A stretch of DNA of 64,000 nt from Octopus vulgaris. Taxonomy: Eukaryota. The DNA is taken from assembly GCA_951406725.2 (NCBI GenBank), contig OX597839.1, forward strand, positions 18,724,001 to 18,788,000, in the 5' to 3' direction. Position 1 is the first letter of the stretch. Each line of letters begins with the position of its first letter. The translations under genes were made by a program, and so were the position numbers. Of this stretch, positions 8,489 to 61,948 are shown piece by piece. The notes beneath the pieces are model-generated. The model saw nothing but the letters and a program-made list of their open reading frames with translations. It ran no database searches and was not told the DNA's origin.

Positions 8489-9262
8489 AACTTTCGGCCT
8501 GGGACCGATGGAAAATTTCCAAAAATCTATGGCCTGCCAGTGCTACCAGGGAGCTTTGCTTATTCGAGATAAACTTCAAAGGCACGGAAGTGCCACCAGC
8601 GGAGCATGTCCGAGATGCGTGTAGGACGACGAGACAGTCCTGCATGCACTCGTCCAGTATCCGAGCATTGCTAACCTGTGGATTGATGTCGAGCATCTGC
8701 TGTTGCGTGTATGACGGATCCGGTTATCAACTGAATCCATCGTGAAGATATCCCCGCTGCTTTCCTTTAATTAGGAAGGAAAGGCTGTGTTTATATGCCT
8801 GGTGGTCATGGCGAAAGAGGTTGTATGGACGAGGTTGAAGGGGCTGAAGACAAACACTTTTCTCTTTGGCCAATCCCTGATGAACTTCAAGTTTCACCTG
8901 AAAAGGGCAGAGAGGGAAATCGTGTCTTCTAGCCAGTTTGCTGAAAGGTGGATGAAAGTGGCGAGAATGGTGCCAGTGAATGGGCCTGCTCTGAGCAGAC
9001 GCCTGTAGTTGCAAAAAAGGAAAGGTAAAAAGCACTTGCCCTAAAAGTAAGGGTGGCCATGGCTTTTTATGGGGTTTTTCCATGAGCAGCCCTCGAACGT
9101 CTCCCCCCCCATTGAAGATCACACATTGTTGAATTTTTAAAGTTTTGTTAGTTTTATTTACACACAAAACCCTAACAGCAACACACACACACATTCTTTA
9201 TTTTCTCCTGTACTGTCCATAATGTTTTTCTTAATGTAAATCCTTGTGGTTAATAAAGAAGT
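8489..9262 (+). mobile_element. L1/Tx1-clade LINE, 3' end of ORF2 (zf-RVT/CCHC region) plus 3'UTR, pseudogenised
   Basis: One frame with in-frame stops: ...RDKLQRHGSATSGACPRCV*DDETVLHALVQY...AKEVVW...FAERW...RRL*. The CxxC..ET..H motif is typical of the L1/Tx1 C-terminus. UTR ends ccttgtggttAATAAAgaag, followed by (ACT)n. Confidence 0.8.
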
Positions 9263-9298
9263 CATTACTACTACTACTACTACTACTACTATACTACT

Positions 9299-9665
9299 AA
9301 GGCGGCGAGTAGGCAGTAACGTTAGCACGCCGGGCGAAATGCTTAGCGGTATTTCGTCTGCCGTTACGTTCTGAGTTCAAATTCTGCCGAGGTCGACTTT
9401 GCCTTTCATCCTTTCGGGGTCAATAAATTAAGTATCAGTTACGTACTGGGGTCGATGTAATCGACTTAATCTGTTTGTCTGTCTTTGTTTGTCCCCTCTG
9501 TGTTTAGTAAAGAAATAGGTATTTCGTCCGTGTCTACTTTCTGAGTTCAAATTTGCCTTTCATCCTTTCAGGGTCAATAAAATAAATACCAGCTGAACAC
9601 TGGGGTCGATGTAATCGACCTATCCCCTTCCACCAGAACTGGCCTTGTGCCAAAATTTGAAATCA
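9299..9665 (+). mobile_element. SINE-A dimer
   Basis: Head ggcggcgag..ggcag..cgttagcacgccgggcgaaatgc, B box gagttcaaattc, two body units joined at aaagaaata|ggtatttc. Confidence 0.9.
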
Positions 9666-10544
9666 TAACTGTTTACACATTTTTAAGTAAATCTCCACTC
9701 TCCTTTGTCTGTGTGTTGTCAAATGTTTCTTTTCGTCTCTTATAACTAAAACAGAATTATTTTTATCATTATTCTTACTTCTACTTCTATTATCGCTGTC
9801 TTCTTAAATGTGTGTGCTTTCGAATATTTCGCTCGATAATTATGCTCAAACTTCTTGATCCTAGATCCGTGTAACTAATCTCTGGGTTTTATTTTTACTA
9901 TTTTCTATTATATACGTAAGACATACACATTTTACTCAACAACAAGAACTTAACGTTTAATTCGGATTGGATTTCCGAAGCCAAATGAAAGCTTTCTTCG
10001 ACGATAAATCGATGAAACTAAACACCACCGTCACCAACTCCAACAACAACAACAACTGCGACAAAATCTTTAACCTTAAGCTACTTCTCTATCAAAATTG
10101 TTTGCTATGTAATGAAATAGCTTTAACTTAAACCTCCCATTTAAATGAAAATCTATTCCAATATTATCAAAAGCAGATGCCAAAATCACGAGAAAATCTT
10201 TCTATCGGCTCTATGAAGCTTACTACAAGGAAATCCAGGCGAATCTAAACCATTCCAGAAGTTAAGCAGCTTCGGCAGAGCAAAAGCGATATTTTCTCTT
10301 ATCCTGAAAATGGCTGTCTTAAACACCTACCGCCATTTTAAATCAAGTGATATCAGACGATTTTTCAACGGGCATTTAACACCAGTTTAAAAGCTACAAT
10401 AGAAGGAAGTGACGGCTATGTAATCTATGACACTACCATCACCATCATCATCAACAGCATCACGGGCTGATAAGAGGACTTTTACGTGGTTGGTTCAACC
10501 GCGTAGAAATAGCAGCCAAATCTTCGTTAAAATCATTAGCTCGG

Positions 10545-10688
10545 AGCCGCGAGCTTTTGATGATATGGTTGTTTATATTTAGAGTGACATTGTAGGGTAC
10601 GTGTGAGAGGCCATCTCTGGCTGGTTTGGGCCTTAAACAAATAGAATATTTGGGCCTGAAATAGTCGGTTTAAATGCTAAACTGTTAA
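10545..10688. mobile_element. Right part of a TTAA-type (piggyBac-like) MITE; probable left part at about 19418-19520
   Basis: Ends ...ggtttaaatgctaaactgTTAA. The segment at 19418 begins ttcaacctcttgtcattcagattactctgtc. Assigning both to one family rests on recall. Confidence 0.45.
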
Positions 10689-11224
10689 AGAAAGACATAT
10701 TGGACAATATAGTCCGGGGAAACTGTCGAATGACTGGACGATCAAGGCTTGAACGTGGAAAACACTCCTCTCTGTGTGTGTGTGTATGTGTGGGTGTGTG
10801 CGTGTGTGTGTGGGAGTGTGTGCCTATCTGTGAATGGATGTATGTATGTGGAAGTGTGTGTATGCGTGTGCATGTGGGAGTGCGTGTATGTGTGTGTATG
10901 TGGGAGTGTGTGTATGAGGGAGTGTATGTGTCTAGAAGTGTGTGTACGTGTTAGTGTGTATATGCGTGTGAGAGCGTGTGTGTACCTTCATCCACAACTT
11001 GACAACTATTGTTTGTTTACGTCCCTGTAACTTAGCGGTTCGGTAAAAAAGACCAATAGAATAAGTACCAGGATCGAAATACAAAAACAAAAAAAAAGTA
11101 CTGCGACTAAAACCCTTCAAAACCCTTCAAAGCGTTGCCCCAGCATGGCCGCAATCAAACGACTGAAACAAGATAAAAGACAGAAGTTTTAACCTTGATG
11201 CTTTTTTCAGTTAGTGACCCATGT

Positions 11225-12385
11225 CGGAACTCACTGAGCCGGGTTCCAACGTGGTCCGCAACAACAAAGTTTGCCTACCACACTCTTTGGTCCATCCTCA
11301 TTACCCTCGATGTCCTGGATACATTCCAGGTCAGCATCTGCAACCATGTCGATGAAAGTGTGGTGACGATGTTTTCATTTTCTTACATCATCAAGGAGTG
11401 GGTTCCACAAGACTAGTTTGGATGTTTGCAACCCAGGGCGGCGCACGCAATGACCAGATACTCGCAGCCGCCTTTACTTGATCTTCTCGCTAATATAGGC
11501 ATTCATATAAAGGCGGCGAGCTGGCAGAACCGTTAGCAGGCCGGGCGAAATGCTTAGCGGTATTTCATCTGTCTTTATGTTCTGAGTTCAAATTCCGCCG
11601 AGGTCGACTTTGCCTTTCATCCTTTCGGGGTCGATAAATTAAGTACCAGTTACGCACTGGGGTCGATGTAATCGACTTAATACCTGTCTGTCCTTGTTTG
11701 TCCCCTCTGTGTTTAGCCCCTTGTGGATAATAAAGAAATAGGTATTTCATCTGTCTTTATGTTCTGAGTTGAAATTCCGCCGAGGTCGACTTTGCCTTTC
11801 ATCCTTTCGGGGTCGATTAAATAAGTACCAGTTACGCACTGGGGTCGATATAATCGACTTAATCCGTTTGTCTGTCCTTGTTTGTCCCCTCTGTGTTTAG
11901 CCCCTTGTGGGTAGTAAAGAAATAGGTATTTCGCCTGTCTTTACGTTCTGAGTTCAAATTCCGCCGCGGTCGATTTTGCCTTTCATCCTTCCGGGGTCGA
12001 TTAAATAAGTACCAGTTACGCACTGGCGTCGATATAATCGACTTAATCCGTTTGTCTGGTCTGTCCTTGTTTGTCCCTTCTGTGTTTAGCCCCTTGTGGG
12101 TAGTAAAGAAATAGGTATTTCGCCTGTCTTTACGTTCTGAGTTCAAATTCCGCCGAGGTCGACATTGCCTTTCATCCTTTCGAGGTCGATAAATTAAGTA
12201 CGAGTTGCGTACTGAGGTCGATATAATCGGCTGACCTCCTCTCCCAAAATTTCGGGCCTTGTGCCTAGAGCAGAAAAGAACATAGGCATTCATTTGTCAT
12301 ATATTGCTGTCATTTCACATTTGGGACCATTCGTAGCATCCTTGTGTAACATCTATTCAGCTCGTGTGTGAGTGAGTTTAGCCTC
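11225..12385 (-). mobile_element. RTE-clade LINE 3' fragment interrupted by a SINE-A multimer
   Basis: Minus translation CYTRMLRMVPNVK*QQYMTNE / EKIK*RRLRVSGHCVRRPGLQTSKLVLWNP...TFID matches RTE C-terminal motifs (YTRMLR, RRLRxxGH, LVLW.P). Confidence 0.8.
11512..12281 (+). mobile_element. SINE-A tetramer (head + 3 internal units of about 184 bp + terminal unit) with a single TSD
   Basis: Junction aaagaaata|ggtatttc at about 11741, 11925 and 12114. Flanking direct repeat ataggcattcat at 11495-11506 and 12282-12293. Confidence 0.92.
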
Positions 12386-12695
12386 AAAGAAGCGGAGGTT
12401 TTAAGGTAGTGTTTGTCCTTCTTAGGCTGATGAGTTCCCTCTTCCTGAGGCATTGGTTTTTACGGCAGCAACTCCCGCTTTAATTACTTTTCTTCTCTTA
12501 TTAGTAACAGTTTCACCGAGTTAATAAGCTGGGTTACACACGGCAAGGAGCTGCACTTGGTTTTCAGATGCTGTTTGAAACGCTTGACATACGAAGCACT
12601 TAGTAGTGTGAGCTTGTTTCTACTTAGAAACTTCGGTTCGATTACCTTGATAGACAGAAAGACAGACATACAGTGAGATTGATGACAGTATACAC

Positions 12696-13454: not shown

Positions 13455-14066
13455 ATCCTTTCTGCTATAGGCTCAAGGCCTGAAATTTGGTGGGGGAGGA
13501 AGATAGTCGATCAGATCGACCCCAGTACTCAAATGGGACTTAATTTCTCGACCCCAGTACTCAAATGGGACTTAATTTCTCGACCCTGAAAGGATGAAAG
13601 GCAAAGCCGACCTCGGCGGAATTTGAACTCAGAACGTAACGGCAGACGAAATACTGCTAAGCATTTCGCCCGGCGAGCTAACGATTCTGCCAGCTCGCCG
13701 CCTTAATAATCGATTACATCTACCCCAGTACACAACTGGTACTTCATTTATCAACCCGGAAAGGATGAACGGCGAAGTCGATATCGGAGGAATTTGAACT
13801 CAGAACATAAAGACGGACGTAATACCCATTTCTTTACAACCCACAAGGGGCTAAACACATAGGGGACAAACAAAGACAGACAAACGGATTAAGTTGATTA
13901 TATCGACCCCAGTGCGTAACTGGTACTTATTTAATCGACCCCGAAAGGATGAAAGGCAAAGTCGACCTCGGCGGAATTTGAACTCAGAACGTAGCGGCAG
14001 ACGAAATACCGCTAAGCATTTCGCCCGGTGCGCTAACGATTCTGCCAGCTCTCCGCCTTAATAATG

Positions 14067-14156
<90 letters not shown>

Positions 14157-14795
14157 CTTTTCTACTGGAGGCACAAGTCCTCACATTTGGTGGGAGGGGG
14201 CTAGTCGATTACATCGACTCCAGTGTTCAACTGGTACTTAATTTATCGACCCCGAAAGGATGAAAGGCAAAGTCGACTTCAGCGGAATTTGAACTCAGAA
14301 AGTAAAGCCAGAAGAAATTCCGCTAAGCATTTTGCCCGCGAGTTAATGATTCTGTCCACTTGTTGCTTAAAAATAATAATAATTTTGGCGCCGGGAACTA
14401 GTCGATTACATCGATTCCAGAGTTCAATTAGCATTTATTTCATCGACCCCGAAACGATGAAAGGTACAACCGACTCCGGCGGAATTTGAACTCAGAACAT
14501 AAAGACAGAGCCGAATTCCCGCTAAGCACTTTTCCAACGTGCTAACGATTCTGCCAGCTCGTCGCCTTAAAAATATTCCTTTCTACTATGAGCACAAAGC
14601 CTGAAATCTTGTGGGAGGTGACTTGTCGATTACACGAAACCCAGTGCTGCACTGGCACTTATTTTATCGACCCTGAAAAGGTTGAAAGGCAGAGGGAACC
14701 TCGGCGGAATCGGGGCTTAGAACATAAAGACGGACGAAATGCCGTAAGACATTTTGTCCGGTGTGTTAACGATTCTACCTGTTCGCTGTCTTAAT
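13455..14795 (-). mobile_element. Cluster of at least 5 co-oriented SINE-A copies separated by (TAA)n
   Basis: Heads (...gccagctcgccgcctta) end at about 13703, 14059, 14365, 14568 and 14792; (TAA)n at 14060-14155. Confidence 0.88.
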
Positions 14796-14956
14796 AATAA
14801 TAAACTCTCGAAATACAAAAATCTGGAAATTGAGAAAATACAAATGAAAAAAATAAAAGAAACAAATGTAAAACTCGAAGACCTAAACAATCTCCATTAA
14901 AATAGGTTCCTGGATATGATAAAAAATATGCAAACAAATACACAAAAAAATAAACA

Positions 14957-27224: not shown

Positions 27225-27660
27225 AAGGCGGCGAGCTGGTAGAAACGTTTGCGCGCCGGGTTAAAAAAGCTTAGCAGTATTTCGTCTACCGCTACGTTCT
27301 GAGTTCAAATTCCGCCGAGGTCGACTTTGCCTTTCATCCTTTCGGGGTTGATTAAATAAATACCAGTTACGTACTGGGGTCGATATAATCGACTTGATTC
27401 GTATGTCTGTCCTTGTTTGGCCCCTCTGTTTGTAGCCCCTTGTAGGCAGTAAAGAAATAAGAATCGTTAGCATGCCTGGCGAAATGCTTAGCGGCATTTC
27501 GTCCGTCTTTACGGTCTGAATTCAAATTCCGCGGAGGTTGACTTTGCCTTTCATCCTTTCGGGGTCGATAAATTAAGTACCAGTGAAACACTGGGGTCGA
27601 TGTAGTCGATTAATCCCCTTCCCTCAAATTTCCGGCCTTGTGCCTTAAGTAGAAAAGATT
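27225..27660 (+). mobile_element. SINE-A dimer between (TAC)n and (ATT)n
   Basis: The second unit re-enters at aaagaaata|agaatcgttagc (about 27461). Confidence 0.9.
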
Positions 27661-38099: not shown

Positions 38100-39610
38100 A
38101 TGGGCATGGTTGGATGGGCGGATGGTTGGATGGGCTGACGGCTGGATGGCTGGTTTGTTGGATGGCAGGTTTGTTGGATGGCAGGTTTGTTGGATGGTAG
38201 GTTTGTTGGATGGCTAGATGGTGGGATAATTGGATGTGTCGGTGTTCGGGTGGGTGAATGAGCTGGTGGATGGTTAGATGTTTAGATATTTGGATGACTG
38301 GATATGTTGGTGTTTGAATGGTTGGATGGTTGAAGCAGTTGGATGGTTAGATAGTTGGATGGTTAGATGGTCAGATAATTGGATGTGTCGGTGTTCGGGT
38401 GGGTGAATGAGCTGGTGGATGGTTAGATGTTTGGATGACTGGATATGTTGGTGTTTGAATGGTTGACGCAGTTGGATGGTTAGATAGTTGGATGGTTAGA
38501 TGGTCAGATAATTGGATGTGTCGGTGTTCGGGTGGGTGAATGAGCTGGTGGATGGTTAGATGTTTAGATATTTGGATGACTGGATATGTTGGCGTTTGAA
38601 TGGTTGGATGGTTGAAGCAGTTGGATGGCTGGTTACTTGGATGGTTAGATAGTTGGATGGTTAGATGGTCAGATAATTGGATGTGTAGATGTGCGGGTTG
38701 GTGGATGAAATAGTAGATGGTTAGCTATTTGGATGATTAGATGTGATAGTGTTTGAATGGTTAGATGGCTGAAGCAGTTGGATAGCTGGTTAGTTGGATC
38801 GTCAGATAACTGGATGTGTTGATGTTCGGGTTGGTGGATGGTTAGATGTTTAGATATTTGGATGATTGAATGTGTTGGCGTTTGAATGGTTGAAGAAGTT
38901 GGATGGTTAGATGGTCAGATAATTGGATGTGTTGATGTGCGGGTGGGTGGGTGGATGGAATGGTGGATGGTTAGATATTTGAAGATGTTGGATGGCTGGT
39001 TAGTTGGATGGTTAGGTGGTAGAATGTGCTGGTGGTTTGATGGCTAGATGATTGAAAGTGTTGGTGATTGGTGAGTAGGATGTTCGATTGTGTTGGTGTT
39101 TAAATGGTTGGAAGTGTTGGTGGCTGTTTAGTTGGATAGCTAGATGGTTACATGACTGGATGTGTTATCATTTAAATGGTTTGCTGGTTGGATGCGTTGG
39201 TGATTGGAAAATTAGATGGTTAAGTGGTTGGATGGTTAGATTGCTGGAAGTATTGGATGGCTGATTAGTTGTATGGTTAGATTGTTGGTGGTTGATTGGT
39301 TGGGTGTATTGGTGGATGGTTAGATGGTTTGATGATTGAATGCGTTGGTGGTTGGATGGTTGATTGGTATTGGTAGTTGGATGGCTTGTTTGTTGGGTGG
39401 ATGATTGGGTGTGTTGATGGTTGGATGGTTCGTTTGTTGGATGTATTGATGACTGGATATTCGGATGGTTGGATGTATCGGTGGTTAGATGGGTGGTTAG
39501 TTAGTTAGTTAGATGTATCGGTGGTTAGGTGGATGGTTAGGTGGATAAATGAATGACTGGATCTGTTAGCGGATGATTAGTTGGATACTTTGATGGTTGG
39601 ATGGTATTGC
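38100..39610. repeat. G/T-rich satellite built from GGAT/GGTT/AGAT words with higher-order units of about 115-165 bp
   Basis: Landmark gataattggatgtgt recurs at about 38226, 38374, 38506, 38672, 38805 and 38918; the + strand is nearly C-free. Confidence 0.9.
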
Positions 39611-39969: not shown

Positions 39970-40340
39970 CGGTAAGCTGGTAGAAAGAATCGTTAGCACG
40001 CCGGGCGAAATGTTTGGCAGTACGTTCTGAGTTCAAATTCCGCCGAGGTCGACCTTGTCTTTCATCCTTTCGGGGTCGATGAAATATGTACCAGTTACGC
40101 ACTGGGTCGATATAATCGACTTAATCCGTTTGTCTGTCCTTGTCTGTCCCCTCTGGGTTTAGCCCCTTGTAGGTAGTAAAGAAATAGGTACGTTCTGAGT
40201 TCAAATTATGCCGAGGTCGACTTTGCCTTTCATCCTCCCGGGGTCGATGAAATAAGAACCAGTTACGCACTGGGGTCGATATAATCGACTAGCCACCTCC
40301 CACCAAATTTTTCAACGCCTTGTGCCTAGAGTAGAAATAA
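39970..40340 (+). mobile_element. SINE-A dimer with a private head deletion
   Basis: Both units begin gtacgttctgagttcaaatt. Confidence 0.85.
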
Positions 40341-43914: not shown

Positions 43915-44150
43915 GGCGGTGAGCTGGCAGAACCGTTAGCACGCCGGGCGAAATGCCCAGCGGTATTTCGTCTGCTGTTACGTTCTGAGTTCAAATTCCA
44001 CTGAGGTCGACTTTGCCTTTCATCCTTTCGGGGGTCGATTAAATATGTACTAGTTACGCACTGGAGTCGATATAATCGACTTAATCCGTTTATCTGTCCT
44101 TGTTTGTGCTCTCTGTGTTTAGCCCCTTGTGGGTAGTAAAGAAATAGGTA
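43915..44150 (+). mobile_element. SINE-A monomer ending in the Tx1-type tail; followed by a minus-strand SINE-C head (44150-44322)
   Basis: Ends gccccttgtgggtagtaaagaaataggta. Confidence 0.88.
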
Positions 44151-54578: not shown

Positions 54579-54705
54579 CATTCACCCAAGCTCTATATTT
54601 GTATTTGTCCCCTGTGTTCAGCCCTGTGTGGCCAATAAAATTATCCATCCATCTATCTATCCATATCCCTGTCTGTCTATCTATCCATTCCCCTAAATAT
54701 CTATC

Positions 54706-55446: not shown

Positions 55447-56535
55447 AGAGAGAAAGAGTGTCATTAATATCCAGGAGAAATGAGCGACAAAGTACGATTT
55501 AATTCCATTTGTCTACAGCTGTTTCATAATCAGTAGGATGACGAATCCAAGATGTCCGGAAAAGGGTCAAATGTGTAATTCTCTTTGCTGCATCCTTATA
55601 TATGTATGTGCATATGTATGAAATGCATAAATGTATGTAATATAATATGTAGGTGAAGTGTATATACTGAATATGTTCCTACCAATCAGAATCGATAATG
55701 TAACCGAAAATGGATTATGAAACGGCTGTAATCACACGAAATTAAATTGAAGACGACGTATCACAGACGATTTGTTTATTTTGGTTAAATGTATGCTCCC
55801 TTCAGCAAACCAACATTGTCTGAACAGGTGGACGGTGTATCACGTGCAACGCAAGATGATAAAGTGTTTTGCTCAAGAACACAACGCGCCACCCGGTCTA
55901 GGGATTGAAACCAAAATCTCGTAATCGTGAATGTAATGTATGAAGTAGAAAGTCCTTGGTACAGTATTATATATTTGAAAAAAAAACCCAACTCATTGAA
56001 ATGGTTTTTCTCCATGTAATACAAAGTACATACATAGAAGCATTCATCTTTATGATATATAAGAGATTTCTAAGAATTTATAAATACATACATAAACGGA
56101 AATTTATAAATATATAAAAATTCATAGACATACAAAAAATTATAAACACATAAAAATTCATAAATATAAATATATAAAAGTACAAGTCCATAAATGCACT
56201 CGCGAAGTCTGGATGTTCCAATTTGCACTAATGAAGGGGATGATAAAGCGGATGTAGAATGATTCATAAAGCGTCTGGAACATGTATAAAGTATATGTAT
56301 AAAGTCTTATGGCCGTTACGAAAAGATATAGGTTGCTATGGGCGAGCTAGCTCCAACCATAAGCAATACTCTCTATTTCTTTTATCAGAGTTAATAGAAT
56401 CACAAAGTTAAAACTTTAAAAGAAATGGGCGAAATAATTTAATAAAAATCGAATGTAATGTTAAAGGCTAAAATGTAATACGATAGTAAATATCCTATAA
56501 AGTGTATATTACGACGCCGTATATATAATATGTGG

Positions 56536-56765
56536 AGGCGAGCTGGCAGAAACGTTAGCACGCTGGGCGAAATGCGTAGCCGTATTTCGTCTGTCGTTAC
56601 GCTGTGAGTTCAAATTCCGCCGAGGTCGACTTTGCCTTTCATCCTTTCGGGGTCGATAAATTAAGTACCAGTTACGCACTGGGGTCGATGTAATCGACTT
56701 AATACCTATGTCTGTCCTTGTTTGTCCCTTCTATGTTTAGCCCCTGGTGGGTAATAAAGAAACAG
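56536..56765 (+). mobile_element. SINE-A monomer with Tx1-type tail
   Basis: Ends gcccctggtgggtAATAAAgaaac. Confidence 0.88.
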
Positions 56766-56899
56766 GTTAGTATATATGTCGTATATATACGGCAGGCTTC
56801 TTTCAGTTTCCGTCTACCAAATCCACTCACAAGGCTTCGGTTGGCCCGAGGCTATAGTAGAAGACACTTGCCCAAGGTGCCACGCAGTGGGACTGAACC

Positions 56900-57488: not shown

Positions 57489-57910
57489 GGTGGCGAGCTG
57501 GCAGAAACGTTAGCACGCTGGGCAAAATGCTTAGCAGTATGTTGTCTGTATTTACGTTCTGAGTTCAAATACCGCCGAGGTCGACTTTGCCTAACATCCT
57601 TTCGGGGTCGACAAATTAAGTACGAGTTATGCACTGGGGTCGACTTAATCCCTTTGTCTGTCCTTGTTTGTCTCCTCTATGTTTAGCCCCTTGTGGGCAA
57701 CAAAGAAATAAGAAACGTTAGCAGGCCGGACGAAATGCTTAGCAGTATTTCGTCTGTCTTTACGTTCTTAGTTCAAATTCCGCCGAGGTCGACTTTGCCT
57801 TTCATCCTTTCGGGGTCGATGAATTTAGTACTAGTTGCGTAATGGGGTCGATCTAATCGACTGGCCCCCTCCCCCTAAATTTCGGGCCTTGTGCCTAGAG
57901 TTGCAAAGAA
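57489..57910 (+). mobile_element. SINE-A dimer
   Basis: The second unit re-enters at aaagaaata|agaaacgttagc (about 57711). Confidence 0.88.
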
Positions 57911-60777: not shown

Positions 60778-61164
60778 ACATACATACATACATACATACG
60801 TACGTTTGCTTCCCAACCACATGGCTCTCGGTTCAGTCCTACTGCACGACACCTTCGTCATATGTTTCTATTATAGCCCCGCACCAACCAAAGACTTGTA
60901 AGTGGATGTGGGAGAGAGAAAGAAAGTGTGTGTGTATATTTGCTGCTAGTGTTAAAAAGTACTATCAGCCGCGCCAAGTCATCAGTATCCAAACAGCTGC
61001 GCCCATTCGTCTTATTTCGTTGTTACAGTACTACAAGTAGCCACTGTGACAGCGATAACAAAAGACATATAAGCAACAACAGCAACTGTGGAAAGAGAAA
61101 GAGTAGTAGTAGAAGTTGCCGTAGTAGTATTAGTAGCAGCAGTAGTAGTCGTAAAAATATGTGT

Positions 61165-61948
61165 TTCTTTATTACCCACAAGAGGCTAAACACAGAGGGG
61201 ACAAACAAGGACAGACAACCGGATTAAGTCGATTACATCGACCCCAGTGCGTAACTGGTACTTAATTTATCGACCCCCGAAAGGATGAAAGGCAAAGTCG
61301 ACCTCGGCGGAATTTGAACTCAGAACGTAACGGCAGACGAAATACCTATTTCTTTACTACCCACAAGAAGCTAAACACAGAGGGGACAAACAAGGACAGA
61401 CAAAGGTGTTAAGTCGATTACATCGACCCCAGTGCGTAACTGGTACCTAATTTATCGACCCCGAAAAGATGAAAGGCAAAGTCGACCTCGGCGGAATTTG
61501 AACTCAGAACGTAACGGCAGACGAAATACCTATTTCTTTACTACCCACAAGGAGCTAAACACAGAGGGGACAAACAAGGACAGACAAACATATTAAGTCG
61601 ATTACATCGACACCAGTGCGTAACTGGTACTTAATTTATCGACCCCCGAAAGGATGAAAGGCAAAGTCGACCTCGGCGGAATTTGAACTCAGAACGTAAC
61701 GGCAGACGAAATACCTATTTCTTTACTACCCACAAGGAGCTAAACACAGAGGGGACAAACAAGGACAGACAAACGGATTAAGTCGATTACATCGACCCCA
61801 TTGCGTAACTGGTACTTAATTTATCGACCCCGAAAAGATGAAAGGCAAAGTCGACCTCGGCGGAATTTGAACTCAGAACGTAACGGCAGACGAAAATACG
61901 GCTACGCATTTCGCCCGGCGTGCTAACGATTCTGCCAGCTCGCCGCCT
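61165..61948 (-). mobile_element. SINE-A tetramer, four near-identical units of about 184 bp
   Basis: Units start at about 61165, 61350, 61534 and 61719; head at 61900-61948. Confidence 0.95.

Follow-up and report, generated by a model that had tools for sequence, protein, structure and literature searches.

The window analysed here, a 64,000-nucleotide stretch of the Octopus vulgaris genome (contig OX597839.1, positions 18,724,001 to 18,788,000), carries at 11495-12293 a tetrameric SINE array that consists of one head, three units of body plus tail 2 and one unit of body plus tail 1, tails 1 and 2 being two alternative 3' ends of this SINE (Table 1). The array is flanked by a perfect 12-bp target-site duplication (TSD), ATAGGCATTCAT, at 11495-11506 and 12282-12293, a 12-mer with only 2 matches in the window against an expectation of 0.03. 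A first-pass annotation of the window had described such a tetramer within a single 12-bp TSD, and its head, its units and the TSD were all located. Each of the three junctions reads aaagaaata/ggtatttc (the slash marks the join), so that the joined unit re-enters the element at head base 48. As annotated, GAAATA at the end of tail 2 is the reverse complement of TATTTC just past the junction, and the joined units retain a B box while losing the A box; both boxes are motifs that we take to be promoter elements, judged by eye against the general consensus. ARAGORN and Rfam returned no match, and the central body presumably resembles the ~60-bp CORE domain of MIR and OR2.

The locus-specific bases of the tetramer are common to the first ~20 nt of units 1 and 2, and units 3 and 4 likewise have their first ~20 nt in common. 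Since the tetramer mixes tail-2 subfamilies (C in unit 1, A in units 2 and 3), at least two donors and hence more than one retrotransposition event must have contributed. Three successive insertions in place accompanied by short duplications, or assembly elsewhere followed by copying, fit this history equally. The pre-insertion allele was not seen in contigs of four runs over 8800-12690, a region swamped by paralogues. A contig from organism E joins 10611 to 12359 and thus lacks window positions 10612-12358, but the ends of this gap do not match the TSD and therefore carry no information on mechanism. The same segment also contains part of a second high-copy repeat, near 11010-11170.

Table 1. 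Features of the tetramer and of the other multimers and tail-2 copies in the window.
Feature	Position	Strand	Remarks
5' target-site duplication, 12 bp	11495-11506	+	sequence match
Single tRNA-like head	11510-11558	+	
A-box-like motif in tetramer head	11522-11532	+	judged by eye
Predicted hairpin, 5' arm and loop	11542-11558	+	predicted fold
Unit 1: body + tail 2	11559-11740	+	subfamily C
B-box-like motif in unit 1 body	11586-11596	+	judged by eye
Unit 2: body + tail 2	11741-11924	+	subfamily A; head base-48 junction
Unit 3: body + tail 2	11925-12113	+	subfamily A; 5-nt insertion
Unit 4: body + tail 1	12114-12281	+	tail-1 subfamily; most diverged of the tetramer units
3' target-site duplication, 12 bp	12282-12293	+	
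Dimer	9301-9665	+	young head + body + tail 2 joined at base 48 to old unit with older tail-1 type
Dimer	13710-14057	-	base-48 junction; second unit tailless, abuts monomer
Dimer	27227-27660	+	head base-15 junction (27459)
Dimer	39986-40337	+	base 48; deletion common to both units (junction 40186)
Tail-2 monomer	43915-44150	+	3' end GGTAT, then unique DNA
Tail-2 monomer	56534-56768	+	3' end GGT, then unique DNA
Dimer	57489-57910	+	head base-15 junction (57710)
Tetramer	61164-61947	-	base-48 junctions; all four units end in tail 2

All seven multimers listed in the annotation (9299, 11512, 13709, 27225, 39970, 57489 and 61165) are present. The uniform layout ascribed to them holds for the internal units, which end in tail 2, but not throughout for the last unit, said usually to carry tail 1: the multimer at 61165 ends in tail 2, that at 9299 has a different, older type of tail 1, and that at 13709 lacks a terminal tail. 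Most junctions are indeed the same bases, as 7 of the 11 in these multimers are the exact 17-mer; one more has two mismatches, one carries the deletion shared by its units, and two re-enter at head base 15. Elsewhere in the window, three old full-length monomers stand head to tail via short AT-rich tails (14156-14800, minus strand), forming a second, conventional kind of multimer; a SINE body contains a perfect 32-bp tandem duplication (13516-13586), and a degenerate G-rich tandem repeat with periods of 141-157 bp occupies 38189-39475.

Self-joining across the genome

The genome that was searched comprises 2.8 Gb in 227 contigs. The base-48 junction has 52,829 exact matches in it (control 2) and the base-15 head junction 3,567 (control 0), so that the junctions are not scattered and the claim of directed rather than random joining is upheld genome-wide. 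An unselected sample of 60 stretches of 10 kb each (600 kb), taken at fixed positions on contigs C2-C29, contains 111 units in 86 elements, 16 of which are multimers; of its 25 junctions, 20 are base-48 joins and the remaining 5 fall at base 15 or close to it. All other statistics come from 1.3-1.75 Mb of loci that were largely enriched through junction searches, with duplicates and elements cut at locus ends excluded before counting, and array sizes were taken from fetched loci chosen among the matches listed. Dimers make up 174 of 255 multimers in this enriched sample. A tail-2 pattern has ~66,000 exact matches genome-wide, and matched 29-mers count 20,364 occupied base-48 sites and 14,072 intact heads. 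The family is dispersed, high in copy number, short and non-coding, as expected of a SINE, and variable-length TSDs of 8-22 bp flank 29 of 65 tail-2 monomers (control 4.6%).

Sequence rather than a hairpin as the probable determinant of the landing site

The annotation placed the junction in a head hairpin and offered insertion of tail-2 RNA into the hairpin of existing copies as one route to arrays. The junction is the first base 3' of the predicted loop, but by its folding the head does not stand out from shuffled sequence (z -0.89). Insertion into existing copies is documented by nested footprints at base 48 (see below), while the part assigned to the hairpin is not supported, since GGTA is used at unrelated sites and on the antisense strand, a second hot spot lies elsewhere, and a related LINE lands in TATC microsatellites. 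Past subfamily-A tail-2 ends at unrelated sites, G occupies position +1 in 43 and position +2 in 38 of 60 cases, T position +3 in 53 and A position +4 in 51. Because the TSDs of several such free-site copies (L183, L118, L057, L069, L149) begin with GGTA bases, the motif belongs to the target, and since GGTA is where most tail-2 copies end at unrelated sites too, sequence rather than a hairpin explains the site. An antisense GGTAC site in the body has received 417 exact tail-2 insertions and a GGTAG site within tail 2 accounts for 30 cases, indicating that the motif works without a hairpin, although joins at the antisense GGTAC site are some 50-fold fewer than those at base 48. Antisense tail-2 copies with TSDs were observed at GGTAC in the bodies of family members at L057 and L115.

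The tail variant predicts both the free-site motif and the position of the self-junction. In the enriched sample, variant A accounts for 260 junctions at base 48 versus 11 at base 15, and the older variant B for 7 versus 27; at free sites variant B prefers AGAA or AT-rich sequence, and it is responsible for most base-15 joins. At L070 (5397-5700) a tail-1 end is also joined near head base 15 via AGAA, so base 15 is not exclusive to tail 2; an internal base-48 join by tail 1 was not seen among the arrays examined. Three loci (L420, L421, L437) have a short extra repeat at the tail end before GGTATT, suggesting slippage during priming. The self-joining system is thus real, genome-wide and directed by sequence.

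A candidate partner LINE

The 3' end of one LINE copy, L129, aligns with tail 2 over 42 of 55 columns with a score of 65 (best of 1000 shuffles, 47), while tail 1 scores 26 in the LINE comparison, inside the shuffle range, and found no partner there. L129 contains a 455-aa ORF with a zf-RVT domain (E=1e-7) and an RVT_1 match (E=1e-5) below the cut-off, and its best PDB matches are human L1 ORF2p; judging from these domain and PDB matches it would be an L1/Tx1-type LINE. Its 3' end, as an exact 24-mer, has 9,033 genome-wide matches. Among 25 ends of this type that were read, T, A, T and C occupy positions 3-6 past the tail in 21-25, and TATC repeats adjoin most of them. Tx1 families aimed at microsatellites or at other elements have been described (PMC4494074). 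In the window, a short 3'-end fragment of a LINE related to tail 2 lies in a TATC tract (54604-54645), and another short fragment of this kind (9241-9265) is followed by a TAC tract and then by the 9299 dimer.

We infer that the L129 family or a relative moves the SINE. No LINE was found joined at base 48 among 598 body starts; five pattern matches for such a join all had SINE-type tails, and none occurred in 18 odd-junction loci. As the L129-type LINE does not itself land at base 48, it is a candidate for the mobilising family at most; a LINE that does land there may carry another tail or use another site. Patterns designed to catch a LINE that ends in the exact tail of the SINE retrieved SINE variants, judging by the matched letters, and of six loci that were read, five are SINE copies and one is a bare tail fragment.

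Insertion in place and elongation of arrays

A double-head pattern, the footprint of insertion into an existing copy, has 65 exact matches genome-wide. Among 28 distinct loci read, tail 2 rejoins at base 48 within 260 nt in 16, at least 11 nt are duplicated on both sides in 14, and in 5 of these 14 the duplication includes locus-specific bases, host deletions among them. The resulting layout is host head, a duplicated 11-17 nt and the full donor. Of 148 full-head arrays, 11 (~7%) have double heads; insertion in place is therefore real but minor. At four loci (L193, L199, L211, L219) the head and the first ~15 nt of the body are tandemly repeated with a 59-65 bp period before the donor body, which is likely a local duplication of double-head loci.

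Long arrays, by comparison, likely lengthen by ordinary local DNA duplication. As to how units within an array are related, of 48 arrays that have at least three units, 18 contain neighbours with at least two private bases in common (random pairs 1.2%), and of 94 arrays that have at least two tail-2 units, 39 mix tail-2 subfamilies. Middle units are often host-type at their start and donor-type at their end, as unequal crossover in a dimer would give. At L430 (at least 9 junctions) and L431 the units are near-identical, with two variants interspersed in L430; these two loci form homogeneous tandems, with a unit shorter than the SINE and at least 4 middle units, of the type seen in SINE-derived satellites, whereas the tetramer and most arrays do not. 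The annotation's view that arrays grow by a directed mechanism rather than by random slippage is borne out for the fixed junction, but long arrays show local DNA duplication.

Unit ages and the TSD as a clock

In 106 arrays that end in tail 1, private substitutions amount to 7.8% in the last unit versus 3.4% in the first, the last unit being the more diverged in 88 and the less diverged in 14; in the unselected arrays it is more diverged in 10 of 10. This excess of older last units departs from what an Alu-like dimeric SINE would show, namely halves of equal age and shared masters. The array heads, on the other hand, match young tail-2 monomers over their whole length. A host origin of the array head was considered and is rejected for the population; the supposed diagnostic variant occurs in all classes.

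TSDs are detectable in only about half of the arrays, and where present they are young. One-headed arrays have 17 TSD mismatches in 360 positions versus 26 in 230 for tail-1 monomers (p=0.003) and 17 in 444 for tail-2 monomers (p=0.6), and among units more than 7% diverged the counts are 8 of 181 in arrays versus 20 of 166 in tail-1 monomers. In a threshold-free rerun, perfect TSD 11-mers were found in 16 of 44 arrays, 3 of 43 tail-1 monomers and 18 of 59 tail-2 monomers, while rank tests on the TSD score were weaker (p=0.04 overall, 0.48 for old hosts). An old unit that had stayed in place would have a TSD of its own age; since the observed TSDs are young, most arrays likely came as one fused RNA. 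Old tail-1 monomers keep old TSDs, indicating that an old copy had to stand fused behind a young head in order to move. Sibling groups were not found among 61 last units, which share at most 3 private bases, as monomers do, and T4 runs, which can stop RNA polymerase III, are not depleted in them (26/61 versus 59/138 monomers).

The last unit of the 9299 dimer is 10.8% diverged. In organism E (three runs, two samples), alignment of the orthologous contig begins only at 9675, leaving the old tail uncovered, while at this one locus a contig of organism B continues into the tail; the missing old tail in organism E could be a deletion there.

A proposed cycle and its alternatives

We propose, with confidence that is evenly balanced, a ratchet in which insertion at base 48, transcription through the fused locus and retrotransposition of the fused RNA as one piece have together produced the joins to other, mostly older members of the family at more than 50,000 places. 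It would begin when a young tail-2 copy enters GGTAT at base 48 of a resident copy, a step for which the footprint is seen directly, and would leave host head, an 11-17-nt duplication, full donor and host body. A transcript started by RNA polymerase III at the donor head may then extend past tail 2 to take in the body and tail of the old host. If its reverse transcription began at the terminal tail, a dimer or multimer with a single head and a fresh TSD would result, in keeping with the age pattern, and old copies would be re-mobilised. Priming just behind the internal tail 2 would instead yield monomers whose 3' end can pair to GGTA(T) and which would feed new insertions at base 48, with a TAT[C/T] preference of the LINE enzyme as a likely contributor. 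Further units would be added by local duplication, as observed for long arrays. A more ambitious version is a self-reinforcing cycle in which insertion places a young promoter before dead copies, read-through resurrects thousands of them, and the extended RNA 3' end writes the next landing address, seeding arrays genome-wide; this we regard as tentative and somewhat short of an even chance. If such a read-through cycle operates, old SINE copies are not an evolutionary terminus, the 3' tail can determine where an element lands, and tandem repeats of a retrotransposon are seeded by the element itself.

In template jumping, reverse transcriptase would copy the RNA of an old element as far as base 48 (or 15) and there switch, guided by 4-5 nt of microhomology, to a young tail-2 RNA at its 3' end, producing the chimera in one event. 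The product would combine a young head and TSD with an old tail, as the product of read-through does, so that these traits do not separate the two. Template jumping also accounts for unique old last units, for the absence of siblings and for undepleted T4 runs, and template switching is reported for several LINE clades in the available text of PMC4476161. Read-through, for its part, would need thousands of source loci, given that the last units form no sibling groups, and the undepleted T4 runs speak against it. However, old tail-1 monomers include no class with young TSDs, so that nearly every event would have to jump, and neither the double-head loci nor the middle units with host-type 5' and donor-type 3' parts are explained. 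Because double-head loci exist and old monomers lack a class with young TSDs, read-through is favoured, and jumping we consider unlikely. Seamless insertion in place as the main route, in which the donor primes at base 48 and the cDNA end anneals to the homologous host head and replaces it, appears improbable. It agrees with last units that are old and unique, with the excess of occupied over intact sites in matched patterns and with the duplication of the first ~20 nt in a few dimers and the tetramer (5/79 identical), and it has a precedent in R2 cDNA annealing to the upstream rDNA target (available text of PMC13580325); yet it predicts host-aged TSDs where donor-aged ones are observed, array heads are donor-type up to the 5' end, and host-type bases at positions 57-63 of the first unit occur in 13 of 79 dimers versus 8 of 81 monomers.

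Amplification of a dimeric SINE from a single ancestral master dimer or a few of them, with unequal crossover as the only source of longer arrays, is very improbable. The identical junction, the private bases shared by neighbours and the near-identical units of L430 and L431 would all follow from it, but the last units fall into several subfamilies, have no private bases in common and exceed the first units in age, nested footprints exist, and there are two junction types. As sole origin this ancestry is contradicted, and it survives only as an elongation step. The annotation had further named RNA-level routes, by template jumps or by read-around of a circular RNA. Young TSDs around old last units do speak for an RNA-level route for most arrays, but a circular 184-nt RNA read around by reverse transcriptase is the least probable source: a circle would explain the fixed junction and the one TSD per array, whereas the mixing of subfamilies in so many arrays, the tetramer included, and the prevalence of dimers with an older last unit speak against it. 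Of the readings weighed here, the ratchet of insertion, read-through and co-retrotransposition thus remains the one that we prefer.

Comparison with known systems

The array architecture itself is already published for clam and reptile SINEs, which we compare here on the basis of the available portions of the respective reports. In the blood clam Scapharca broughtonii, 64 elements of the form TSD1-(SINE)n-TSD1 comprise arrays of 4-15 units with truncated internal tails, for which unequal recombination was suggested (PMC11481361). Like these, the octopus arrays have a first unit with a complete head, head-truncated repeats, a last unit with a complete tail and one TSD pair; unlike the clam arrays, they have a second LINE-type tail in complete form on each internal unit, a junction that recurs more than 50,000 times, and units of differing age and subfamily. 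The SINE-derived satellites (sSats) of squamates, with hundreds of units in subtelomeric positions, were ascribed to duplication and homogenisation (PMC10702118). The octopus unit resembles that of snake sSat3 in starting in the head and keeping box B, in alternating unit variants and in loci with both SINE termini, but the octopus arrays are dispersed, mostly of 2-5 units, and start by retrotransposition.

In crocodilians, SINEU and Tx1-Mar target Mariner-N4_AMi, and tandem copies sandwich a TSD (PMC4494074). There too Tx1-clade machinery steers a SINE to a site in a repeated element and tandem insertions result, but the octopus SINE targets its own family and most joins are one-headed. The octopus arrays share with U6/L1 chimeras (PMC4476161) the presence of two RNAs of different origin within one TSD pair; the chimeras are rare and have variable truncation points, while the octopus joins lie at one fixed base and number tens of thousands. 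As with the B2, Dip and Ves multimers (PMC8466645), whose origin was left open between nesting and dimeric templates, many copies are in multimers, but those are whole copies head to tail and the octopus units are joined inside the head.

Among octopus elements, the CORE-SINEs OR1 and OR2 are named in PMC4758252, PMC4824008 and PMC5804259, the available portions of which do not mention multimers. By description, OR1 and OR2 probably share with the SINE studied here a tRNA-type head and a CORE-like central body, and this SINE likely belongs to the same family. The main text of PMC13282606, as far as it was available, does not mention nested or tandem SINEs, and no account of such self-joining in octopus SINEs was found in the open-access literature searched. 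The TSD-age result appears to be new. Composite elements make up a substantial part of the young copies, which bears on how repeats in the octopus genome are annotated and dated.

In the available text of the papers on SINE multimers, the origin of arrays is left open between nesting, dimeric templates and DNA recombination (PMC8466645, PMC10702118, PMC11481361). In the octopus arrays the age differences between units, with the TSD serving as a clock, allow these routes to be told apart and counted; nesting, co-integration and DNA duplication all contribute, in proportions that can be measured.
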